From Nannocystis sp. ILAH1 (GTDB lineage Bacteria > Myxococcota_A > Polyangia > Nannocystales > Nannocystaceae): a stretch of DNA of 50,803 bases. The position numbers and the translations under genes are program-made. Every line of letters begins with the position of its first letter. Position 1 is the first letter of the stretch. Shown one piece after another: positions 2,399 through 49,876 of this stretch. The notes beneath the pieces are model-generated. The model searched no databases. It was not told where the DNA came from and saw only the letters and a list, made by a program, of their open reading frames with translations. Location: positions 267,718 to 318,520 of the forward strand of contig NZ_JAPNKD010000018.1 in assembly GCF_026626585.1 (NCBI RefSeq), given 5' to 3'.

Positions 2399-3102
2399 GC
2401 GCGAACGACAACCCCGCGGTCACTGCCGTCGACGCGGCCCCGCCGCTGCCCGGCGGCCAACGCCTGCGACCGGCCGGCGCGCCGCGGCCAGGCTGCCGCG
2501 TGCTGGTGATCGACAACTACGACTCGTTCACCTTCAACCTGGTGCAGTACCTGCTGCAGCTCGGCGCGGTGGTCGACGTCCACCGCAACGACGCGGTCAA
2601 GCTCGAGCAGGTGCTGGCCGACGCGCCGAGCCACATCGTCCTGTCCCCGGGGCCAGGTACGCCGGCCGAGAGCGGGGTGTGCCAGGACCTGTGCCGCCGG
2701 CTGGCCGAGGCCGACGCGCCGGCGATCCCGGTGCTCGGGGTGTGCCTCGGCCACCAGACGCTGTGCGAGGTGCTGGGCGCGCGGGTCGAGCGGGCCGGGC
2801 GGATCATGCACGGCAAGCTGTCGCCGATGCTGCACGACGCCACGGGGGTGTTCGCCGGGCTGCCGTCGCCGTTCATGGCCACGCGCTACCACAGCCTGGT
2901 CGCGGTCGAGAGCACGCTGCCGGCTTCGCTGATCCCCAACGCCCGCACCGACGCCGGCGAGCTGATGGGCGTGCGCCACGCGACGCGGCCGCTGCACGGG
3001 GTCCAGTTCCACCCCGAGTCGGTGCTCAGCGAGCACGGCCACGCGATGCTGCGCACCTTCCTCGAGATACCTGTCCCATCGAACATGGCGGTGACGACAT
3101 GA
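2395..3102 (+). CDS. trpG: anthranilate synthase component II (glutamine amidotransferase)
   Basis: GTG at 2395 overlaps the trpE stop (GTGA). A GAAGGAGG RBS lies at 2381-2388. Class-I GATase motifs are present: VLGVCLGHQ and HGVQFHPES. It is the distal part of the long artefactual ORF 838..3102. Confidence 0.9.
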   Translation: MSANDNPAVTAVDAAPPLPGGQRLRPAGAPRPGCRVLVIDNYDSFTFNLVQYLLQLGAVVDVHRNDAVKLEQVLADAPSHIVLSPGPGTPAESGVCQDLCRRLAEADAPAIPVLGVCLGHQTLCEVLGARVERAGRIMHGKLSPMLHDATGVFAGLPSPFMATRYHSLVAVESTLPASLIPNARTDAGELMGVRHATRPLHGVQFHPESVLSEHGHAMLRTFLEIPVPSNMAVTT

Positions 3103-4166
3103 CCGAAGGGGCAGACGACGAGGCGCTGCGGCGCGGGCTGGGCCGGCTGGTCCGCGCCGAGGCGCTCGACGAGGCCGAGGCGCTGGCGATCTTCCGCGAG
3201 ATCGTGGCCGGCGCGGCCGACCCGGCGCAGATCGGCGGGCTCCTGGTGGCCCTGGCGATCCGCGGCGAGACGGCGCCGGTGATCGCGGGCGCGGTGCGGG
3301 CGATGCGAGAGGCGGTGGTGCCGGTGCCGCTGCGCGAGGGCGGGGCGATCGACACCTGCGGGACCGGCGGCAGCGGGGTGGCCCGACGCAACGTGTCGAC
3401 CGCGGTGGCGATCGCGGCGGCGGCCTGCGGGGCGCGGGTGGCCAAGCACGGCAACCGCGGGATCTCGAGCCCGTGCGGCTCGGCCGACGTGCTGGCCGCC
3501 CTCGGCGTCGACATCACTGCGCCGCCCGAGCGCGTCGGCCAGTGCGTCGACGAGGTCGGCGTCGGCTTCATGTTCGCGCCCAGCCTGCACCCGGCGATGC
3601 GCCACGCGGCCGGCCCGCGCAAGGCGCTGGGGCTGCGCACCCTGTTCAACCTGGTCGGGCCGATGTGCAACCCCGCGGGGGTGCGCCGGCAGGTGATCGG
3701 CGTGTTCGACCCGGGCAAGGTCGAGGCGATGGCGGCCGCCCTGGGCGCCCTCGGCAGCGAGCGCGTGTTCGTGGTCCACGGCTTCTTCGCCGGCGCGGAC
3801 CGGCCCGGGATCGACGATCTCAGCCCCGAGGGGCCGAGCACGGTGGCCGAGTGGCACCGCGGCGCGCTGCGCACGTACACGCTGCGCCCGGCCGACGCCG
3901 AGCTGCCGGAGGTGCCGATCGCGGCGATCGCCGGCGACGACGCGGCCGGCAACGCGAGCGCGCTGCGGGCCGTCCTGGCCGGCGAGCCGGGGGCCTACCG
4001 TACAAGTGTGCAGTACAGCGGGGCGCTGGCCCTGCTGGCGGCCGGCGACGACGGCATCGAGACGCTGCCGGCCAAGGCGCGGGCGATCGGCGCCGCGCTC
4101 GAAGACGGCCGGGCCGCGGCGGTGCTCGACCGGCTCGTCGCCGCCAGCCGCGCTGCGCTACCCTGA
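3099..4166 (+). CDS. trpD: anthranilate phosphoribosyltransferase
   Basis: ATG at 3099 overlaps the trpG stop (ATGA). TrpD motifs are present: DTCGTGGSG, KHGNRGISS and LFNLVGPMCNP. It is the distal part of artefactual ORF 2388..4166. Confidence 0.92.
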   Translation: MTEGADDEALRRGLGRLVRAEALDEAEALAIFREIVAGAADPAQIGGLLVALAIRGETAPVIAGAVRAMREAVVPVPLREGGAIDTCGTGGSGVARRNVSTAVAIAAAACGARVAKHGNRGISSPCGSADVLAALGVDITAPPERVGQCVDEVGVGFMFAPSLHPAMRHAAGPRKALGLRTLFNLVGPMCNPAGVRRQVIGVFDPGKVEAMAAALGALGSERVFVVHGFFAGADRPGIDDLSPEGPSTVAEWHRGALRTYTLRPADAELPEVPIAAIAGDDAAGNASALRAVLAGEPGAYRTSVQYSGALALLAAGDDGIETLPAKARAIGAALEDGRAAAVLDRLVAASRAALP

Positions 4167-4175
4167 GGGCAGGAC

Positions 4176-4982
4176 ATGAGCGACAAAGGCAGCACGTACC
4201 TCGACAAGATCCTGGCCGCCAAGCGGGCCGAGCTCGCCGCCCCCCGGGCGACCCGCTCGGGAGCGCTGACCGACCGCGAGCTGATCGAGCTCGGCGCCCG
4301 CCTCCCGCGCCCGCGCGACTTCATCGGCGCGCTGCGCGAGGGCCCGCGCCCGGGGATCATCGCCGAGTTCAAGCGCGCGTCGCCCAGCGCCGGCGTCCTG
4401 CGCGAAGGCGCCGACGCGCGCCAGATCGCGATGCTCTACGCGGCCGGCGGCGCGACCTGCATGAGCGTGCTGTGCGACCGGCACTTCCAGGGCTCGCTCG
4501 AAGACCTCCGGACGGTGCGCCAGAGCGTGGCGCTGCCGCTCCTGGCCAAGGACTTCATCCTCGAGAAGACCCAGATCGTCGAGGCCAAGCGGGTCGGGGC
4601 CGACTGCGTGCTGCTGATCGTCGCCGCCCTGCCGGCGCCGCAGCTGCGCAACCTGATCGAGTTCTCCCACACGCTCGAGATGCAGGTGCTGTGCGAGACC
4701 CGCGACGAGGCGGAGATCGATCGCGCCATGGCAGCCGGGGCGAAGCTGATCGGGGTCAACTCGCGCGACCTGCAGACGTTCGAGCTCGACCCCGACCGCG
4801 CGGCCAAGCTGCGCAAGTACGTGCCCAAGAGCTTCACGTACGTGGCCGAGAGCGGGGTCCGGACCATCGACGACGCGCTCCGCCTGCGCGACTCGGGGGC
4901 CGACGCGCTGCTGATCGGCAGCTACTTCATGACCGCCGACCAGCCGGGCGAGGCGCTGCGCGACCTGGTGATGGCGCTGTGA
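4176..4982 (+). CDS. trpC: indole-3-glycerol-phosphate synthase
   Basis: ORF 4176..4982. IGPS motifs are present: IAEFKRASPSAG, LCDRHFQGS, LLAKDFI and GVNSRDL. Confidence 0.92.
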   Translation: MSDKGSTYLDKILAAKRAELAAPRATRSGALTDRELIELGARLPRPRDFIGALREGPRPGIIAEFKRASPSAGVLREGADARQIAMLYAAGGATCMSVLCDRHFQGSLEDLRTVRQSVALPLLAKDFILEKTQIVEAKRVGADCVLLIVAALPAPQLRNLIEFSHTLEMQVLCETRDEAEIDRAMAAGAKLIGVNSRDLQTFELDPDRAAKLRKYVPKSFTYVAESGVRTIDDALRLRDSGADALLIGSYFMTADQPGEALRDLVMAL

Positions 4983-39365: not shown

Positions 39366-40028
39366 TCAGGGCGGCGGCGGCAGGTCGTCTGCGGCCTCCT
39401 GGCGCAGCTTGGACCATATGCGCAGGAGCTCCGCGCTGCGCGGGTCGAGGCTGCCGCGGGCGCGTACCGCCGCCTCGACCACGACGATCCGCGCCACCAG
39501 GGCCGGCTGCACGTCGGCGGTCGGGAGGTCGCGCAGCGTGTTGGTCGCCGCCTCGATGAAGTCGATCGGCGCGACCTCCTGCATGAATGTGAGCACCGGC
39601 TCGACCGACTCCGCCTTCGGCACCGCGCTGATCATCTCGAGGAACGTGATCACCTTCCATTGCGGCCACAGGTCGCCGAACTTGAGGATCACCTCCCAGC
39701 ACAGCGGCAAGATCGCCGGCCCGTAGTCGTTGCGGGCCTTCATCCCGTACCGGGTCCAGATCCGCGAGATGCCGGTGACCTTCCTGCCCTCGGCGGCGAC
39801 GTTGACCTGATCGAGCTCCGCGAGCACCTGACGATACAGCGCCGCGTGCTCGCTCCAGCCGCGGACGATCGCCGCCAGCGTCCGCCACAGCCAGTCGGGG
39901 TCGCCGGCGTACGCCGGCAGGTAGGTCATCACCGCCGTCGGGTCGGCGAGCACCCGGTCACGCTGGTGCGTGTAGTCCTCGCCGTGAAGCCTCCGCAGCG
40001 CCGCGAACTCTGGCCATTTCTGCGTCAT
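39366..40028 (-). CDS. hypothetical protein (220 aa), between the deiminase and the sirtuin
   Basis: Lower part of ORF 39366..40202. ATG 40028 (MTQKWPEFAALRRLHGEDYTHQ...) overlaps the upstream gene's stop by 4 nt. Confidence 0.65.
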   Translation of the reverse strand: MTQKWPEFAALRRLHGEDYTHQRDRVLADPTAVMTYLPAYAGDPDWLWRTLAAIVRGWSEHAALYRQVLAELDQVNVAAEGRKVTGISRIWTRYGMKARNDYGPAILPLCWEVILKFGDLWPQWKVITFLEMISAVPKAESVEPVLTFMQEVAPIDFIEAATNTLRDLPTADVQPALVARIVVVEAAVRARGSLDPRSAELLRIWSKLRQEAADDLPPPP

Positions 40029-41269
40029 ACCTGCTGCTCCCACCACCAGCGATCGACCGGCGGCTCCCGCTTGCTGTTCGTCCCGCAGTGGATCTCGCCG
40101 TAATTGACGTGATACGTGAAGAAATCGTCGACGAACTCGAGGTCGACGCCGGTGTCGGCCGGCGGCCCGAGCGCGGTGCGGATGTTGCTCTCGAACTGGC
40201 ACACCCCGCCGACCTCCGGCCCGAACGGCTTGGGGATCACCAGCCGCACCGTCTTGTCGGGTTTCGTCAATACCAGCATGTTGACCACCCCTGGCGTGTA
40301 CGCGACGTGAAGATTATTTTCGGTCGTCATGAACAGCACCGGCAACGGGATGAAGTCGGTCTCCGCGAGGTCGAGCTCGTCCATGAGCTTGGCCTTGATG
40401 CCATCGATGGAGCCCTGCACCGTCGTCTGCACGTTCATGAAAGACGAGTCGTCGAGCACCTCGTCGACCGTGCGCAGGTGGTAGCTGTCGTATTGGTCCT
40501 GCGGCGTCATGACATCCGGCGGATGATCGGGCAGCGGCGGCGGCGGCGTGAGCCGCAGCAGCGGCGCGGTGCCCTGCCGCGCCGCTTTGAGTCGGCGCAG
40601 GATCGACACCGCTTCCGTCGGGCTGGCGAGCGCGACCTTGAACTTCTTGGGCGCGTTCTTCACCGGCACGAACGACATCACCTCGTCGACGTGACCGACC
40701 TCCAGCCACCCGGTGTTGAGCGCGAACGGCTCCTGGACCCGCTGCGCGCGCAGGAAATCGACGACATCGCGCTGCATGTTGCGCCGGGCGGTGCCGCCGG
40801 GGTGCTCGCCGTAGATCAGGCGGCCGAACTTGTACTCCTTGCCGCGACCGCTGTGGGTGAACGGCGGCGAGCACTCGAGGTTGCCGAACGAGTCGAGGGT
40901 GCCGCCGCTCTTGCTCGGCGGCATCGCCTGGACCCACCCGAAGCCGGGCTCGAGCATCCGTTCGCGCGGGTAGCGGTCGATGGGCCCCCAGCCCAGGATT
41001 GGACGCGAGTCGTTGGCCGTCGCTTGCGCGCCAAACGCTCCAGCGGCCCCGACGCGCAGCGCCGGTGGTGCCGGCGAGGGCGAGGACGCAGTCGTGGGCA
41101 AGCGGGGCCCGCTGGCCTCCTCGAGTGCGGCAAAGTAGGCGCCGGTGCCCCAGCGTGGGAACGTCGGGGCCCGACGCTCGACCGAGCCAAACGCCCCTTG
41201 CCTGCCGGGCTTCTTGAGACGGCCGTGTTTGACGGGATGGCCGATGTAAAGCGCAGCTTGCGCGTTCAT
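40025..41269 (-). CDS. eukaryote-type protein-arginine deiminase (PAD/PADI catalytic domain) homologue
   Basis: Lower part of ORF 40025..41494. ATG 41269 ([18 protein letters not shown]...). The C-terminus [34 protein letters not shown] closely matches the PADI catalytic-Cys region (FFTYH...GEVHCGTN...WW). Also [15 protein letters not shown]. About 414 aa, with no N-terminal Ig-like domains. Confidence 0.75.
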   Translation of the reverse strand: [414 protein letters not shown]

Positions 41270-41604
41270 GCTGATTTCCGTCTGGAGATCCCGGCCGTCC
41301 GCCACCTCTGAGATGGCGACAAGGGCCTTCTTGGCAGCGGCGGTGCCTGAGAGGACAGTCTGCGTGGTGGTGGTGCGGCCACCGCCCTGGCGGCGGGCGG
41401 ACCAGGCGGTGACGCCAAGTGATCTCGCCGGCTCTCTCAAAGCGGCGCTGAGGGACGGCGCCAGAGTAACGGCGGCAGGCCGATGGATATGCAACTACCA
41501 CCACAGAACGACGGTCCGTCTGCTCGCCGCGGAAGGTCCTTTTCTGCCTCGACAAAATCCCGTCTTCGACCGAGAATATCCGTGGCACGACCGACTCTTG
41601 CGTT

Positions 41605-43199: not shown

Positions 43200-43994
43200 C
43201 TACCTTAAGGCATGCATGTCGAGTTGATCGACGAGAATCTCCCGCAGGCGCCTGAGTTCCCGCTCGGAGTCGGCGTCGATACTGACTGAATCGTAGGAAA
43301 CGTCGCTCGGATAGAGCATGAGCGAGGCGTCACTGCGGTTGTAGTATGCGAGCTCTCCCGTCATGTAGGGCACTGGGGCGAACCCGAGTCTTTCCGCGAG
43401 CTCCCGGAACCGGGCCATGCGCGCTGCCATGGGCGGCACGCCGGCTTTACGAGCTGTCGACCGGCGCAGCTCAGCCCGGTGCGGCAGGACTTCGGTGCGG
43501 AGGAAGCGGAACGCCTCGCAGTAGAGGAACTGCATCAGGCTGTGGCAGTGGTGGTAGATGTACACATGATGCGATCCTGGGATAGGCTGGCCTTCATCGT
43601 CAAAGCCCCACTCATAACCGACCACCGGGAACGGGGGGCTCTGAGTGGTGTCGAGGAACATCTCGGACTGTCGGTCGAGCGTCCACAGGTATACAGCTCC
43701 TGGTGGGGCAGGGACCGTGGGGGCCCCGTAGAACGTGGCGATCACGTCGATGCCGAAATCATAGTCCTCCATGAATGGAGCGGCGGCTCCGTGCGGGGTG
43801 CGACCCAGGCGTCGAAGGAAGGCCCGAAGTTCGGGCGGAAACGCGAAGCCCGCGCGCATCTCTAGGCGGCGGATATCGTCCTCGGACGCGGGTGCGAAGC
43901 GAGCGCCAAACCCTTCGACATAAACAGCGAAGTACCGGACCCACGCGTCGAGCTCGGTAGCCCAGAAGTGTTCGTCGTCCCTATTTGGCGTCAT
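43200..43994 (-). CDS. hypothetical protein, in a lower-GC island
   Basis: ORF 43200..43994. The local GC is clearly lower than the flanks. There is no recognisable motif. Confidence 0.55.
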   Translation of the reverse strand: MTPNRDDEHFWATELDAWVRYFAVYVEGFGARFAPASEDDIRRLEMRAGFAFPPELRAFLRRLGRTPHGAAAPFMEDYDFGIDVIATFYGAPTVPAPPGAVYLWTLDRQSEMFLDTTQSPPFPVVGYEWGFDDEGQPIPGSHHVYIYHHCHSLMQFLYCEAFRFLRTEVLPHRAELRRSTARKAGVPPMAARMARFRELAERLGFAPVPYMTGELAYYNRSDASLMLYPSDVSYDSVSIDADSERELRRLREILVDQLDMHALR

Positions 43995-44234: not shown

Positions 44235-44617
44235 TCATGGGGCTGGGGAAAGGAGCTGGGCCAGCCAGTGGATGATCAAGGTGTCGAGCGCGCCGGACTC
44301 GCGGCAGCTCGTCGGGTCGAGGTAGACGACGGGGTCGGTGGGACGGGGCGGGCGGGCAAGGCGCCGCTCGGCGAGGATGATGGCTTTCGGGTGGACGTCG
44401 TTGCCGAAGGCGTGGGGCCGGTCGGCGAGGTAGCCGTGCATCTTGAGATAGGCGGCGCGGAGGTAGCCGAGGTCGCTGGACAGTTTAGCGTCGAGCAGGA
44501 GTTCGAACTTGCGGCGGTCGTCCTCGAAGACGAGGCGGAGGTCGGGGCGCAGGTGCGCCCTCGCATCGTAGGCGTGAAGGAGGGCTAGTGTGTAGGCGCC
44601 GCGCTCGGCCGGCTGGT
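44235..44617 (-). pseudogene. C-terminal fragment of the McrC-like gene split by the IS21 insertion
   Basis: This is track ORF 44235..44633 minus its IS-derived start. It continues in frame from the N-terminal fragment 47335..48194 once the IS and one TSD copy are removed (...LFYNQP|AERGAYTLALLHAYD...). It contains a PD-(D/E)xK-like motif, RPDLRLVF...ELLLDAK. Confidence 0.6.
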
Positions 44618-44736
44618 TGCGTATTCCGGCCATCGTGATCGCGTGGATCGGTCATCGTGATCACTCCGGAGGTCGGAGCGGAGCGACGCGGTTGCGGGCT
44701 CGGCGCGGACGGAGCGAAGCGACGCTGATGGGGTGT

Positions 44737-45441
44737 TCAGGTCTGGGAGGCGACCTCCTTGCGGCGTGATGGGCCTTTTAGCATGAGGCGGTGGCACTGG
44801 GAGAGCATGCGATCGCAAATCGCATCAGCGGTTGTGGGGTCGCCGATCTGGTCGTGCCAGAGCTCGGGCGAGCGCTGGCTGGTCAGGATGGTGGAGCGTT
44901 CACCGAATCGATCCTCCATCAGTTCGGACATGTCTCTTCGCTCGGCCGGTCCGAGCGGGGTCATGGCCCAGTCGTCGAGGATCAGGACGTCGACGCGGGC
45001 GAGCTTGGCGAGCAATCTTGCATAGGTCCCGTCGGCGCGGGCGAGCGCGAGCTCGTCGAAGAGCCGCGAGGTGCGGCGGTACATGGCGCGGTAGCGGCGG
45101 CGGAGGGCGTGCTGGGCGAGGGCGCAGGCGAGGAAGGACTTCCCGGTGCCCGTCGGGCCGGTGATGGCGATGTTCTGGTGCTAGGCGACCCAGTTGCAGG
45201 TCGCGAGCTGGCGGATCAGCGGCTTGTCGAGCTCGCGGCGGTCGTCGTAGTCGAGGTCCTCGAGGCAGGCGCTGCCGAGCTTGAGGCGCGCCTCCTTGAG
45301 GTTGCGCTTGAGGCGGGCGTTCTGCCGGCTCATCCACTCGGAGTCGACGAGGAGGCCGAGGCGCTCGTCGAAGCCGAGGCCACCGTAGTCGGGCCGCGAC
45401 TGCTGCTCGAGCCAGGCTGCGGCGAGACCGTTCAGCCGCAT
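44737..45441 (-). pseudogene. istB: IS21 helper ATPase IstB with an in-frame amber stop (TAG at 45181-45183) just before the Walker A motif
   Basis: Track ORFs 45181..45441 and 44737..45084 are in the same frame. The sequence between them reads HQNIAITGPTGTGKSFLACA (Walker A) straight after the TAG. The C-terminus is VDVLILDDWAMTPL...ERSTILTSQRSPELW. Confidence 0.8.
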
Positions 45442-45492
45442 TCTTTGAGCTTGTCCATGGTCTGCTGATTCATCATCGATGTGTCTTTTCGG

Positions 45493-47040
45493 TCAGTTGT
45501 AGTAGCGAGGGCCGCGGATGTTCTCGTGGGCCTCGGGCTTGTCGGCCGGTATGTCGGCGGGGATATCGGGCAGCGGGGCGCGGTCGAGGCCGTTCTTGAG
45601 GATCGATTCGACGTGGCGGTACGAGCGAGCGCGCACGGCCACGGCACGGGCGCAGGCGGCCTCGAGGCGCGCGTCGCCGTAGGTCTTGCCCAGGCGCAGG
45701 ATGCCGAGGCAGGCGCGGTAGCCGTGCTCGGGGTGCTTGCGGTCCTTCATGATGGCCTGGGCGAGCTCGGCGGTCTTCGGGCCGACCTGCTTCGCCTGGG
45801 CGAGGATCCGGCTCGGCGAGCGATCGGCGTGCCGCTGGTGGGCCTTCGGCATGTGCTCGGGCTTGGTGGTATGGCGACCCGCGGCGAAGCTGCGCGCGTG
45901 CGAGGTGATGCGCTTGCCGCCGTGCAGGAGCCCGACGGTCGTCGCGGTGAAGCGCGCCTCGACGGCCTCGCCGACGAGGGTGTACGGCACCGAGTAGTAG
46001 TGGCGATCGATCTCGACGTGGTAGTCGATGTTGACGCGGCACGTCTTCCACTCGCAGTACTCAAATCGCTCGACGGGGAGCGGTCGCAGTTCCGATCGCT
46101 CGATGCGCTCGAAGAGGGCGCGACGGCTGATGTTGCCGTACTTCTTCATCGGCCGGGTGTTGAGGTCCTCGAGCAGCTCGGCGACCCGCGCATTGAGCTC
46201 CGCGAGCGAGTGGAAGACCTCGTCGCGCAGGCGCGCGACGATCCACCGCTGGGCGATCAGCATGGCGTTCTCGACCTTGGCCTTGTCGCGCGGCTTGCCG
46301 GGCCTGGCCGGCATGACGGTGGTGCCGTAGTGCTCCGCGAGCGCGGCGTAGGTTCGCTGGATCTTCGGGTCGTACCAGCACGACTTCGTCACCGCGGCCT
46401 TGAGCTGGTCGGGCACCAGCGCCGCCGGCACGCCGCCGAAGTACTCGAGCATGCGCGCGTTGCTGGCGATGAAGTCGTGGCCCCGCTGCGTCAGGCTCGC
46501 CTCGGCGTAGGTGAGGTTCGAGGCCCCGAGCACGCCGACGAAGAGCTCGACCGCGATGCACTCGCCGGTCTTCGGATCGACGATGTGCAGCCTGTTACCC
46601 GAGTAGTCGACGAAGGCCTTGTCACCGGCCACGTGGTCGATCCGCATCGTCCAGCCGCGCTGCTTCAGCCAGGTTCGGTACAGCTCGCAGAATTGCGTGT
46701 AGCGATACCCGTCCCGGTTCTTCTCGAGGTACTCGACGTGCAGCAGCGCGAGCGTGACGCCCTTCCGCCGCCGCTGCGCGTGGATATGCGTGAAATCAGG
46801 CAGCGGCCTCGCCCGCGACGCCGGCTCGCCGTCGTAGACGACCCGCTCCAGTGCCTCGTCGCTGAGGGCCTGCACGGCCTCCCAGGTGAGGCCGGCCTCA
46901 CTCGCCTTGCCCACGACCTTGCCGACGACGCCGGCGCTGACGTCGAGGCTCGCAGCCACGTCCCGGTGGCTTCGCTGCAGCGCCCACTTCTGGCGCAGGA
47001 TCTCGCGGATGTTCTTCATGGTCAGTCGCTGCGTCGCCAT
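45493..47040 (-). CDS. istA: IS21-family transposase IstA
   Basis: Frame of ORF 45493..47178. ATG 47040 (MATQRLTMKNIREILRQKWALQRSHRDVAASLDVSAGVVGK), with a GGGAGG RBS 5 nt upstream. It has an HTH domain plus an integrase core (DYSGNRLHIVD...). Confidence 0.9.
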   Translation of the reverse strand: MATQRLTMKNIREILRQKWALQRSHRDVAASLDVSAGVVGKVVGKASEAGLTWEAVQALSDEALERVVYDGEPASRARPLPDFTHIHAQRRRKGVTLALLHVEYLEKNRDGYRYTQFCELYRTWLKQRGWTMRIDHVAGDKAFVDYSGNRLHIVDPKTGECIAVELFVGVLGASNLTYAEASLTQRGHDFIASNARMLEYFGGVPAALVPDQLKAAVTKSCWYDPKIQRTYAALAEHYGTTVMPARPGKPRDKAKVENAMLIAQRWIVARLRDEVFHSLAELNARVAELLEDLNTRPMKKYGNISRRALFERIERSELRPLPVERFEYCEWKTCRVNIDYHVEIDRHYYSVPYTLVGEAVEARFTATTVGLLHGGKRITSHARSFAAGRHTTKPEHMPKAHQRHADRSPSRILAQAKQVGPKTAELAQAIMKDRKHPEHGYRACLGILRLGKTYGDARLEAACARAVAVRARSYRHVESILKNGLDRAPLPDIPADIPADKPEAHENIRGPRYYN

Positions 47041-47172
47041 TTCGCCTCCCACGCGAAATGGCCGGTGATTCAGCGTCGACCTCGCCCCCTCGCGCATTCG
47101 GCTGCGCGTAACACGCGGAGGCGGCTCCGTTCCTTGGAGTCTCGGCCGCCGGCCGGCGCACTCGCCGCCGGT

Positions 47173-47315
47173 GATCACGAGGACCGATCTGGGCGATCAC
47201 GATGCCGATCGGCGCGATCACGATGCCGATCGGCGCGATCACGACGCCGACCGGCGTGATCACGATGCCGATCTACGCGATCACGAGGGACCGATCTGGG
47301 CGATCACGATGGGCC
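47173..47315. repeat. array of about 6 x 21-bp GATC-rich repeats (GATCACGATGCCGATCGGCGC) in the IS21 left terminal region
   Basis: Copies at roughly 47173, 47195, 47216, 47237, 47258, 47279 and 47304. The first and last copies are the variant GATCACGAGGRACCGATCTGGGC. Each unit carries two GATC sites. Inverted copies of the unit lie at 44632-44665 at the other end. Confidence 0.8.
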
Positions 47316-48194
47316 GTTTTCCGCAGGCTGGTTGTAGAAGAGGCGCAGAACGGCCTGGCCTTCGCGCCAGGTGGCGATGGCCCGACGGTTGGCAGCGATC
47401 AGGGTGTTCTTGCGGGTGGCCGCGGGCCAGGCGCGGTCGATGGATTCAATCAGGGTGAGCAGGATGTAGAGCTCGAAGCGCGTCTCGGGCTGATACGGGA
47501 CGAGGGAGTAGCGGGCGAGGGCGTCGCGCAGGTGCTCGAGTTTGGGGCGAGGGAGGAGGTTGGCGTGGTCGTGGGCGATGATGGCGGCGTGGCGGATCGC
47601 GGCATCGCGGCTCTGCTGGCACGCGCGGTAGGTGTCGGCAGTCGGGCGTGACTCGGGGAGGTCGCGCAGCGCGGCGTGTCGGAGGCAGGTCTCGGCGGCG
47701 TTGTGGATCCGCGAGAGGCGTCCGATCCAGAGATCGTCGCGTGCATATTCGCTCGGGCCGAGCGTCGCGGCGGCGAGGCGGATCCGCTCGACGAGCCAGC
47801 GAACGAGCAGGAGCTCCTGCGTACTGAAGGACCGGCGGAGGCTGGTGGTGATGGCACGAGCGGGATCGCGGGTCTGTTGCCGGAGGACCAGGGTACGGCC
47901 CCAGTCGATCCGGCCGCGGACATGGCCGCGGAGCTCCTCGCGGACGCGTTCACTGCGCGGGTGGATCCGGCGCAGGTAGGCCGGGAGGTCGTCGCAGACG
48001 AGGCGCTCGACGCCGCTGCCGGGGTCGAGCAGGAAGGCGAGCGCGGCGAGCTGGTGCAGGCTGTCGGCGTCGCCGGCGAGGCGGGCGAGCGCGCGGGCGA
48101 CGGCGGTAGCCGGGCGCGGGTGGCCCTCGGCGCAGCGCAGGAGGTACGCCGGGAACTGTCCTTCGAGCCAGGTCTCCCAGGAGCGCTCGGTCAT
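47304..48194 (-). pseudogene. N-terminal fragment of the McrC-like gene, partner of the McrB-like GTPase; truncated by the IS21 insertion
   Basis: ORF 47304..48194. Its last three codons plus the stop (GPS*) come from the IS tip. Its ATG overlaps the McrB-like stop (ATGA). Confidence 0.6.
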
Positions 48195-49876
48195 GGGCGG
48201 CGGAGGTGCGGGAAGTAGCTGCGCAGGCTGGTGTTCAGCTCGTGGCGGACGTCATCCTCGGTGAAGAGGCGCTCGATCCGGGAGATGGCCTCCTGGGCGT
48301 GGTTGTCCTCGGCGCCTTCGAGCTGGGGGAAGACGAGCAGCTCGACGCCCTCGCCGAGGGCCCGCTGGTGGCTGGCGCCGGGGCGCTGGGCGGCGTACTG
48401 GAGGAGGTCGAGGAGCAGCGCTGGGCCGAGATCGACGGCGCTGCCGAGGCCCTGCGCACGCGAAAGGACGCGCGCGGCAAGCTCCCAGCGGTCGGGGGCG
48501 ATCCCGTGGGATTCACCTGCCCGCTGGGCCAGGCGACGCAGGGCGTCGTCGTCGAGGCCAGGAACATGCACCGCCGCGAAGCGGCGCATGAAGGCATAGG
48601 ACAGGCGAAACAGGCTGGCCTTGTCGCGCACGTTCATGGTGGCGATCAGGCGGATGTGCGGGCCGAAGTTGTAGGGCTCGGCGCCGGGGCCGATCATAAC
48701 CTCGCGACCGTCGGCGTCGGTGTAGGCGGTGACGACGGTGCCGCCGCTGAGGACGGTGAACAGCTCGCCGAAACATTTATCGATGTCGGCACGGTTGACC
48801 TCGTCGAGGACGATCCACCGACGCTCGCGCAGGGCGCGGGTGACGATACCCTCGCGGAAGGCGAGGCGGGTGTCAGCCTGCTGGGCCCAGCCGCCGATCG
48901 TGTCATAGGTCGACCAGTCGGCCGAGGCGGTGGCGAGCTTGGCCTCGCCGCCGCAGGCGCCGTCGGCGTGGGCCTGGGAGGCGAGCGCGGCCGCAATCGT
49001 GCTTTTGCCGGTGCCCGGCGGGCCGAGCAGGAGGAGGTGCTTACCGGCGTTGAGGGCGGCGCAGCAGCGCTCGAGGACGCCGGGCGGGCACTCGAAAGCG
49101 CCCAGGCGGGCGAGGACGTTCTCGGGAGTGAGGGCGAGTGGGGTGAAGGTGGACGCGAGGAGATCCGCAAGGATAGCCACACTCGTGAGTTCGTTGGGCT
49201 CGTCGGTGACTGAGTTGTCCTCGTCGTCTGCGGGGTTGCTCAGCCCCGATCCCTCGATCTTGAAGAGGGACTCGCCGCGGATCTTCGTGCGCGCGAAGGA
49301 GTAGAAGTGGGCCTTGATCAGCGCGAGGGTGACGAAGCGGCGCAGCACCTCGCCTGGGACGGGGCTCCAAGATCGGCTTTCGAGGTCGTATGTGCCGCAC
49401 ACGATCTCAGACTTGTTGCCCAGGCCGCTCTCGCCCGCCACCTCGCGCGCCTGCTCGCCGTAGCGGCTGTTGCGCTCAGGATCGTCGTCGAGGACGCGCT
49501 CATAAAAGCTGTTGCGGACGAGCAGCCGCACCTGGCGCTGTTTGGCGCGGATCGCGTCGCGGACACCGAACTCGAGGTTGGACCAGAGGACCAGGCCGGA
49601 GCTCTTCGAGACCCATACCCCAAGGCCCGTGGCGTGGCCGCTATCCTCGGGTCGGCCCGAGCGGTTGATGTTATCTTTACGGATTCGGACCGGGAGCGCG
49701 ATTTCGCCGCCAGACCAGCGGACGAGAAGCTGGCGGCGATCGCCGTCGCGCGTGTCTTCGGCGATCTCAATGTCGCGTCGGGCGACCTTCCACGTGCGCG
49801 GCAACTCGGCGTCGAGGAGCGTCTGGAAAGCCTCGCGCGTGGTTTCCTCGGATTGTTCGAGCGATGGGAGTGCCAT
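48191..49876 (-). CDS. McrB-like AAA+ (AAA_5) GTPase subunit of a McrBC-type restriction system, with a ~280-aa N-terminal domain of unknown specificity
   Basis: ORF 48191..49876. LLLLGPPGTGKSTIA, then WIVLDEVNRADIDKCFGELFTVL (the McrB-type DEINRAN..K.FGEL motif), then RLIATMNVRDKASLFRLSYAFMRRF. A GAAGGA RBS is present. Confidence 0.8.
   Translation of the reverse strand: MALPSLEQSEETTREAFQTLLDAELPRTWKVARRDIEIAEDTRDGDRRQLLVRWSGGEIALPVRIRKDNINRSGRPEDSGHATGLGVWVSKSSGLVLWSNLEFGVRDAIRAKQRQVRLLVRNSFYERVLDDDPERNSRYGEQAREVAGESGLGNKSEIVCGTYDLESRSWSPVPGEVLRRFVTLALIKAHFYSFARTKIRGESLFKIEGSGLSNPADDEDNSVTDEPNELTSVAILADLLASTFTPLALTPENVLARLGAFECPPGVLERCCAALNAGKHLLLLGPPGTGKSTIAAALASQAHADGACGGEAKLATASADWSTYDTIGGWAQQADTRLAFREGIVTRALRERRWIVLDEVNRADIDKCFGELFTVLSGGTVVTAYTDADGREVMIGPGAEPYNFGPHIRLIATMNVRDKASLFRLSYAFMRRFAAVHVPGLDDDALRRLAQRAGESHGIAPDRWELAARVLSRAQGLGSAVDLGPALLLDLLQYAAQRPGASHQRALGEGVELLVFPQLEGAEDNHAQEAISRIERLFTEDDVRHELNTSLRSYFPHLRRP

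Follow-up and report, generated by a model that had tools for sequence, protein, structure and literature searches.

An IS21-family insertion sequence in Nannocystis sp. ILAH1 with a disrupted istB gene and multi-unit terminal repeats

A 50,803-nucleotide stretch of DNA from Nannocystis sp. ILAH1 (contig NZ_JAPNKD010000018.1, positions 267,718 to 318,520 of the forward strand; here called the window) contains a pair of transposition genes, istA and istB, lying between arrays of GATC-rich repeats of about 21 bp. The question raised by this locus is what kind of mobile element these parts make up, whether it can still move, and what the repeats at its ends are for. The locus is very probably a decayed, non-autonomous copy of an IS21-family insertion sequence (IS), in which istB has been inactivated twice and the ends consist of putative sites for the IstA transposase. 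The group to which it belongs circulates in Nannocystis and related Myxococcota, this copy was inserted recently in a chromosomal gene, and the element is in every respect of the known IS21 kind; judged from its sequence, it is most likely a family member without a name as yet. The coordinates of the features are collected in Table 1.

Table 1. Features of the element, its ends and the interrupted gene, with positions in the window (ORF, open reading frame).
Feature	Position	Strand	Remarks
Complete IS21-family insertion sequence	44618..47325	-	2708 bp; tips 5'-TGCGG...ACGCA-3'
Target-site duplication GGCTGGT, left (istA-proximal) copy	47326..47332		Identical 7-mer at both junctions
Target-site duplication GGCTGGT, right-end copy	44611..44617		Perfect 7-bp direct repeat
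Left-end array, 7 tandem ~21-bp units L1-L7	47163..47312	-	Consensus nCATCGTGATCGCnnnGATCG; proposed IstA-binding sites
Right-end units R1 and R2	44630..44672	+	Inverted relative to L1-L7
Two 27-nt direct repeats, 36 bp apart	44671..44733	+	GG(T/A)CGGAGCG(G/A)AGCGACGC...; between istB stop and R2
istA, apparently intact, 515 aa	45493..47040	-	NF033546, Mu-transpos_C_2, DDE alignment
istB pseudogene	44737..45476	-	246 codons in intact relatives; Pfam IstB_IS21 on read-through, alignment with 17 relatives
Nonsense codon TAG for CAG (Gln98)	45181..45183	-	9 codons upstream of Walker A GPTGTGKS
1-bp deletion GAAATG to GAATG (A3 to A2)	45442..45443	-	Shifts the istB frame after codon 12; not found in L001 or L098
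Interrupted 414-aa host ORF, 5' part	47333..48194	-	Restored on element removal
Interrupted 414-aa host ORF, 3' part	44235..44617	-	
McrB-like AAA_5 gene	48191-49876	-	561 aa; AAA_5, McrB likeness weak

The IS21-family identity proposed in the initial annotation is borne out by both gene products: IstA passes the NCBIfam model NF033546 ('IS21 family transposase') with 253 bits against a cutoff of 160, and the istB read-through matches Pfam IstB_IS21 (PF01695) with 208 bits (1.6e-61). IstA also has a Pfam Mu-transpos_C_2 match at 4e-21 and an rve match of 24.7 bits, the latter under the Pfam gathering cut-off of 32.6 bits. Residues D145, D211 and E257 align with D124, D187 and E233 of the solved IS5376 IstA (8b4h), which form the catalytic triad of that enzyme (PMC10122671), and the istA product, a DDE transposase of the IS21 type, therefore looks intact. 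Its N-terminus, MATQRLTMKNIREIL (47040-47017, minus strand), has a second Met at codon 8 after Met1, recalling the IS21 'cointegrase' isoform that is without the first 8 residues (PMC10122671). The gene order istA-istB is that of the family, with istB beginning 16 nt past the istA stop; it is the gene of the AAA+ helper ATPase (the intact IstB of the Nannocystis pusilla copy L001 passes NF038214 with 233 bits against a cutoff of 200), and in this copy it is a pseudogene. Scanning the IS with the sigma-70 consensus revealed nothing resembling a promoter, and the istA promoter was not located.

The limits of the element are set by comparison with L001, since homology to it (94% nucleotide identity over the whole element, with unrelated flanks) starts and stops exactly at 47325 and 44618; the span of 44618-47327 given in the initial annotation was thus within 2 bp of the true ends. 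These ends are terminal inverted repeats (TIRs) of the 5'-TG...CA-3' form found in the IS21 family (TGCGGAAAACGG... / ...CCGGAATACGCA), and both junctions carry the same 7 bp as a short target-site duplication. Duplications in the family are 4-8 bp according to ISfinder descriptions, and the related copies L088 and L091 are likewise flanked by one of 7 bp (GCCAGGG). When the element and one copy of its duplication are removed in silico, a single uninterrupted minus-strand ORF of 414 codons results, which confirms both ends and the recent insertion.

The in-frame TAG noted previously upstream of the Walker A motif, in ...CNWVA*HQNIAITGPTGTGKSF..., is present, and translation of 45468-44737 gives ...LATCNWVA*HQNIAITGPTGTGKSFLACA... 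with the TAG in frame. It is wrong, however, to regard it as the single lesion of istB, as a 1-bp deletion near 45442-45443 also shifts the frame, such that the first 12 codons (ATG at 45476) are out of frame with MRLNGL... (ATG at 45441). All relatives have the corresponding N-terminus MMNQQTMDKLKE-MRLNGL without a break (MMNQQTM(D/E)KLKE-MRLNGLA), and at the position of the TAG an alignment of 17 relatives (64% to 98% identity) has Gln, with Glu, His or Asn in the more distant ones. Neither lesion occurs in any relative. A check of other copies for an intact istB had been suggested earlier, and one was found in N. pusilla and in metagenomic copies; L001, L081-84 and L088-98 encode an intact IstB of 246 aa, with Gln at the TAG position in the close relatives. 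The stretch from the TAG to Walker A contains no start codon, and the next Met after the TAG leads to a 115-aa product without that motif. Relative to the N. pusilla copy, dN/dS is 0.14 for istA and 0.03 for istB, values that indicate purifying selection over nearly all of the divergence and hence that the istB lesions are recent.

Strand transfer in IS21 cannot proceed without IstB and its Walker A motif (PMC11208146, PMC10122671), and with a frameshift and a TAG before Walker A this copy cannot supply IstB. It is not an autonomous copy with functional IstA and IstB, and its membership of the family is unaffected. The earlier description of the copy as probably immobile is correct in that its own IstB is lost, but has to be amended from immobile to non-autonomous, because the ends and IstA are intact. 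Donor DNA consisting only of TIRs, together with separately purified proteins, suffices for the reaction in vitro (PMC10122671), and with the ends intact mobilisation in trans appears possible; by this analogy, the copy could be mobilised by IstB from a sibling copy.

Among species-representative genomes, 418 relatives were identified, the best of them in N. pusilla Na p29 (95% IstA identity). Exact-sequence queries with IstA (from its 515-aa or 534-aa start) and with the neighbouring AAA_5 protein matched no record. Sibling copies in N. pusilla Na p29, Nannocystis sp. ILAH1 and RBIL2, and metagenomes have 87-98% nucleotide identity and shared tips at differing insertion sites, and their proteins are annotated by NCBI only as 'IS21-like element helper ATPase IstB'. 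Logan contig L098 carries an element 98% identical to that of the window with both proteins intact; istA differs from it at 4 nt and istB at about 36 nt, most of them in third codon positions, and this mosaic identity suggests recombination between IS variants. The IstB cluster at 90% identity has members from Nannocystis sp. ILAH1, sp. RBIL2 and N. pusilla, including one sequence with several accessions on 7 contigs, and one variant of the cluster is present on at least 147 contigs. An element variant of 2695 bp (L088-L097, metagenome contigs) has about 91.5% nucleotide identity and six left units; its IstB is found on at least 147 contigs and in 188 collection blocks, one of them binned as an Actinomycetota metagenome-assembled genome, and it looks like an abundant, apparently active IS. 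A megablast search of the IS against plasmids found nothing beyond partial istA matches of ~71%, and the best IstA match of any kind among annotated plasmids has 49% identity.

The N. pusilla copy L001 (istA at 3001-4548) has the reverse defect, with istB intact and a CAG to TAG change at codon 17 of istA (ILR*KW), which is a second independent amber mutation in this element family. A special mechanism common to both CAG to TAG events was considered and rejected, as 58 single transitions could create a stop codon in these genes and 24 of them are CAG to TAG; the two events are read as coincidental decay of solitary copies.

At the left end, a 12-bp tip (TGCGGAAAACGG, 47325-47314) precedes the array, and the right-end units are likewise preceded by a tip, TGCGTATTCCGG (44618-44629). 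Tandem Repeats Finder reports the left array at 47173-47311 (period 21, 6.5 copies, 84% matches, score 174) with the consensus GATCACGATGCCGATCGGCGC, identical to the unit proposed in the initial annotation. About six copies were claimed there, and this number is corrected to seven by counting the core TCGTGATC, which recurs at spacings of 23, 21, 21, 21, 21 and 22 bp; the two inverted right-end copies, placed earlier at 44632-44665, are also present, at 44630-44672. There are thus multiple direct repeats within each end, seven units on the left and two on the right. The 10-mer GATCACGATG occurs 12 times in the window with no more than one mismatch, against 3.6 +/- 1.8 expected, and with 9 of the 12 located in the two IS ends the arrays are not attributable to chance. 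An ORF on the plus strand across the array (47171-47458) was rejected as spurious, being a mere translation of the repeat. Between R2 and the istB stop, the 27-nt direct repeats lie at 44671-44697 and 44707-44733, and a GGAGCG(A/G)AGCG motif adjoins the innermost right unit in many relatives.

The initial annotation made its account of the 21-mer depend on the array being found at the ends of other copies, and it is present in all copies examined. Every other copy or close relative that reaches the end has 6-7 left and 2 right units: seven left units in N. pusilla, and six in a Joint Genome Institute (JGI) metagenome copy and in the widespread 2695-bp variant, with two right units in each. We extended the comparison to 44 distinct relatives that have IstA identities of 46-95% and an array that could be detected; right units were sought in them by a simple 10-mer search. 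These have 3-7 contiguous left units (seven in 4 loci, six in 11, five in 10, four in 10 and three in 9) with a mean array period of 21.3-24 bp, and the seven of the present copy are the upper limit of the subgroup range while lying within it. Where the right end is available, 1-3 inverted units are present there in most relatives, although the 10-mer search gave none in a few. The core motif shifts by lineage (CATCGTGATC, CATCGTGAAC, CATCGTGACC, ATTGTGACC, CAAACTGGAC, CAAATCGGCC), and so does the second half-site (GATCGG, TTTCGC, ATTCCG, TTCCAC).

IS21 TIRs contain multiple (at least two) direct repeats, L1/L2 and R1/R2, that are bound by the helix-turn-helix (HTH) domains of IstA; two complete repeats are needed by IstA, and its HTH domains engage R1 and R2 (PMC10122671, PMC11208146). 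The conserved position of the units, their inversion between the ends, their bipartite structure and their co-variation with lineage all fit IstA HTH sites. The proposal that the 21-bp units are the multiple terminal IstA-binding repeats of the family is thus supported by comparison, through the conserved arrays, the lineage-covarying motif and the literature on IS21 TIRs, and we refer to them as putative IstA-binding sites. The five additional left units, L3-L7, are a conserved trait of this IS21 subgroup. Structural work has used two repeats per end and left open the role of further repeats in related systems (PMC10122671).

The initial annotation also drew attention to the number of GATC sites in the array. 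The density is indeed unusual, with 12 sites in the 145 bp of 47171-47315, as compared with 5 in the next densest stretch of that length in the window and a mean of 1.1, and three further sites are at the right end; the left-end count of about 13 is reduced to 12, and two sites per unit, claimed for every unit, are found in five of the seven left units, L3 and L7 having one each. GATC is over-represented throughout the window, with 402 sites against 279 +/- 14 expected from dinucleotide shuffles. The local density is a by-product of the unit of this lineage, which contains GATC twice.

Some points weigh against a decayed, non-autonomous copy with IstA sites at its ends. Both istB lesions could in principle be sequencing errors, and the frameshift, the loss of one A from a run of three, is of the indel type that long reads typically produce; that the units belong to IstA is, for its part, a conclusion from their position, inverted symmetry, co-variation and analogy. 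Were the istB defects errors of sequencing or assembly, the copy would really be intact and autonomous, in keeping with an istA so close to that of the intact L098 and with the youth of the insertion, which is evident from a perfect duplication of the target and a host ORF that has not decayed. We consider this quite unlikely, as a C to T substitution is atypical of consensus error, two independent defects fall within one 740-bp gene, decay of a single copy is known elsewhere from the istA amber codon in N. pusilla, and IstB fragments truncated to 115 and 125 aa are present in databases. The same lesions might alternatively be programmed recoding, with read-through of the TAG, ribosomal frameshifting or both tuning the dosage of IstB. 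Other IS families, e.g. IS1 and IS3, often use programmed frameshifting, and the second Nannocystis copy has an in-frame TAG too, though in istA. Every relative inspected, however, has CAG or another sense codon at this place and a continuous N-terminus, and with so large a share of the stop routes being CAG to TAG two such events are unremarkable. TAG is moreover an ordinary stop that ends 3 of the 30 likely genes in the window (TGA, the dominant stop, ends the other 27), and there is no tRNA gene in the window, and thus no suppressor tRNA. With the lesions not conserved and the second TAG lying in a different gene, there is next to no likelihood of recoding or suppression.

The repeats themselves admit two other explanations. 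A minisatellite generated by slippage, with no role in transposition, would account for the variation between six and seven units among close copies, which shows that slippage or unequal exchange does occur, but not for inverted copies at the opposite end at an equal distance from the tip, nor for a position kept across 46-95% IstA identity while the sequence co-varies with lineage; we find it highly improbable. The GATC-dense arrays could also act as a switch that responds to methylation and so ties transposition or istA expression to replication, as in IS10 and IS50. The Dam-regulated ends of IS10, IS50 and IS903 have one or two conserved GATC sites, and the effect was demonstrated in a Dam+ host. 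The present element resembles them in having GATC within its presumed transposase-binding ends, 12 sites in one and three in the other, and differs in that the sites are not conserved in relatives. GATC-rich arrays (5-14 sites) are found in most relatives of the myxobacterial clade, and in Myxococcus hansupus GATC is reported to carry partial m6A, at 31.9% of sites (PMC4765838). The methylation idea of the initial annotation nonetheless gains no support from the family, as the arrays of 20 of the 44 relatives lack GATC, the GATC half-sites have been replaced independently (the first by CGTGAAC or CGTGACC, the second by TTTCGC or ATTCCG), and the GATC excess is window-wide. No DNA adenine methyltransferase was detected among the 31 window ORFs or gene products scanned (including the restored host ORF), which says little of the whole genome. 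A switch of this kind is therefore very unlikely.

For the decayed IS21-family copy, a course of events can be proposed by analogy with IS21 and IS5376. The element would have inserted recently into the chromosomal gene, leaving the 7-bp duplication, and the two N-terminal HTH domains of IstA would bind the ~21-bp units at both ends. A tetramer of IstA would synapse the two outermost units of each end and cut at the terminal CA, and strand transfer would require the AAA+ IstB on bent target DNA; as no IstB would be made from this copy, it would move only with IstB provided by another. Units L3-L7 may serve for extra IstA loading, or for sequestration or autoregulation of IstA upstream of istA. 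A bolder proposal, which we think unlikely, is that long asymmetric arrays (5-7 left IstA sites and 2-3 distal ones) mark a mechanistically distinct IS21 subgroup in which an IstA oligomer larger than the L1/L2-R1/R2 tetramer assembles on the left end, possibly in a methylation-sensitive manner in the GATC-rich myxobacterial clade. If this were true, the left-end oligomer might sequester new transposase, repress istA, or set end polarity as in Tn7.

The family prototypes, IS21 (plasmid R68.45) and IS5376 (Geobacillus stearothermophilus), share with this element the istA-istB order, an IstA with HTH, DDE and beta-barrel parts and an AAA+ IstB, although their IstA is about 400 aa rather than 515 aa and the similarity of the IS5376 IstA is confined to the DDE region (E 6e-11). 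Units per end number 2-3 in IS21, and IS5376 has two per end, as compared with seven left and two right here. Both prototypes also have TG...CA tips and direct repeats at each end that are bound by their IstA (PMC10122671, PMC11208146). The closest named elements in annotated plasmids are of the ISBmu3 and ISEc12 families, which belong to the same subgroup and align over the full length of IstA with 45% and 41% identity, respectively. An ISBmu3-family element has a similar layout of a tip and tandem units, with 4 left and 3 right units, a period of 23 bp and the core GAAGGTGATC; elements of both families have fewer units and a longer period than the one described here. A Pseudomonas aeruginosa plasmid carries a further element, labelled simply as IS21 family, with 5 units on the left and 3 on the right at a 23-bp period. 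Tn7 and phage Mu likewise have several repeats to which the transposase binds, with different numbers at the two ends; in Tn7 these include adjacent 22-bp TnsB sites. The likeness extends to the Mu-transpos_C_2 domain of IstA and to the IstA tetramer, which resembles TnsB and MuA assemblies (PMC10122671), but Tn7 and Mu are distinct elements with more genes.

The surrounding window is ordinary chromosome of 71% G+C, with trp genes and genes for a Mur ligase, TypA/BipA, TldD/PmbA and a hybrid histidine kinase. The ATG of the 414-aa host ORF overlaps the stop of the upstream gene for an AAA_5, weakly McrB-like ATPase, and this layout suggests a two-gene McrBC-like module disabled by the insertion. 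The restored 414-aa protein has no matches in Pfam, PADLOC or PDB sequences, and a McrC-like label for it would be a guess; by eye, its C-terminal part contains a PD-(D/E)xK-like 'RPDL...ELLLDAKL'. Directly downstream of the interrupted gene, a 264-aa ORF (43200-43994, minus strand) has a weak SMI1/KNR4 (SUKH-1) immunity-protein match slightly under the Pfam cutoff, and an ORF at 40025-41494 (minus strand) strongly matches the vertebrate-type protein-arginine deiminase domain PF03068 (E 8e-79), which is uncommon in bacteria.

The finding matters little beyond annotation. For this genome, it identifies an insertion that inactivated the gene following that of a McrB-like ATPase, and it defines exact ends, a target duplication and lesions for an unnamed IS21 element often found in Nannocystis genomes and soil-type metagenomes. 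For the family, the comparative survey may aid work on the IS21 transpososome, as many members have 5-7 contiguous sites at one end where structural work used two.

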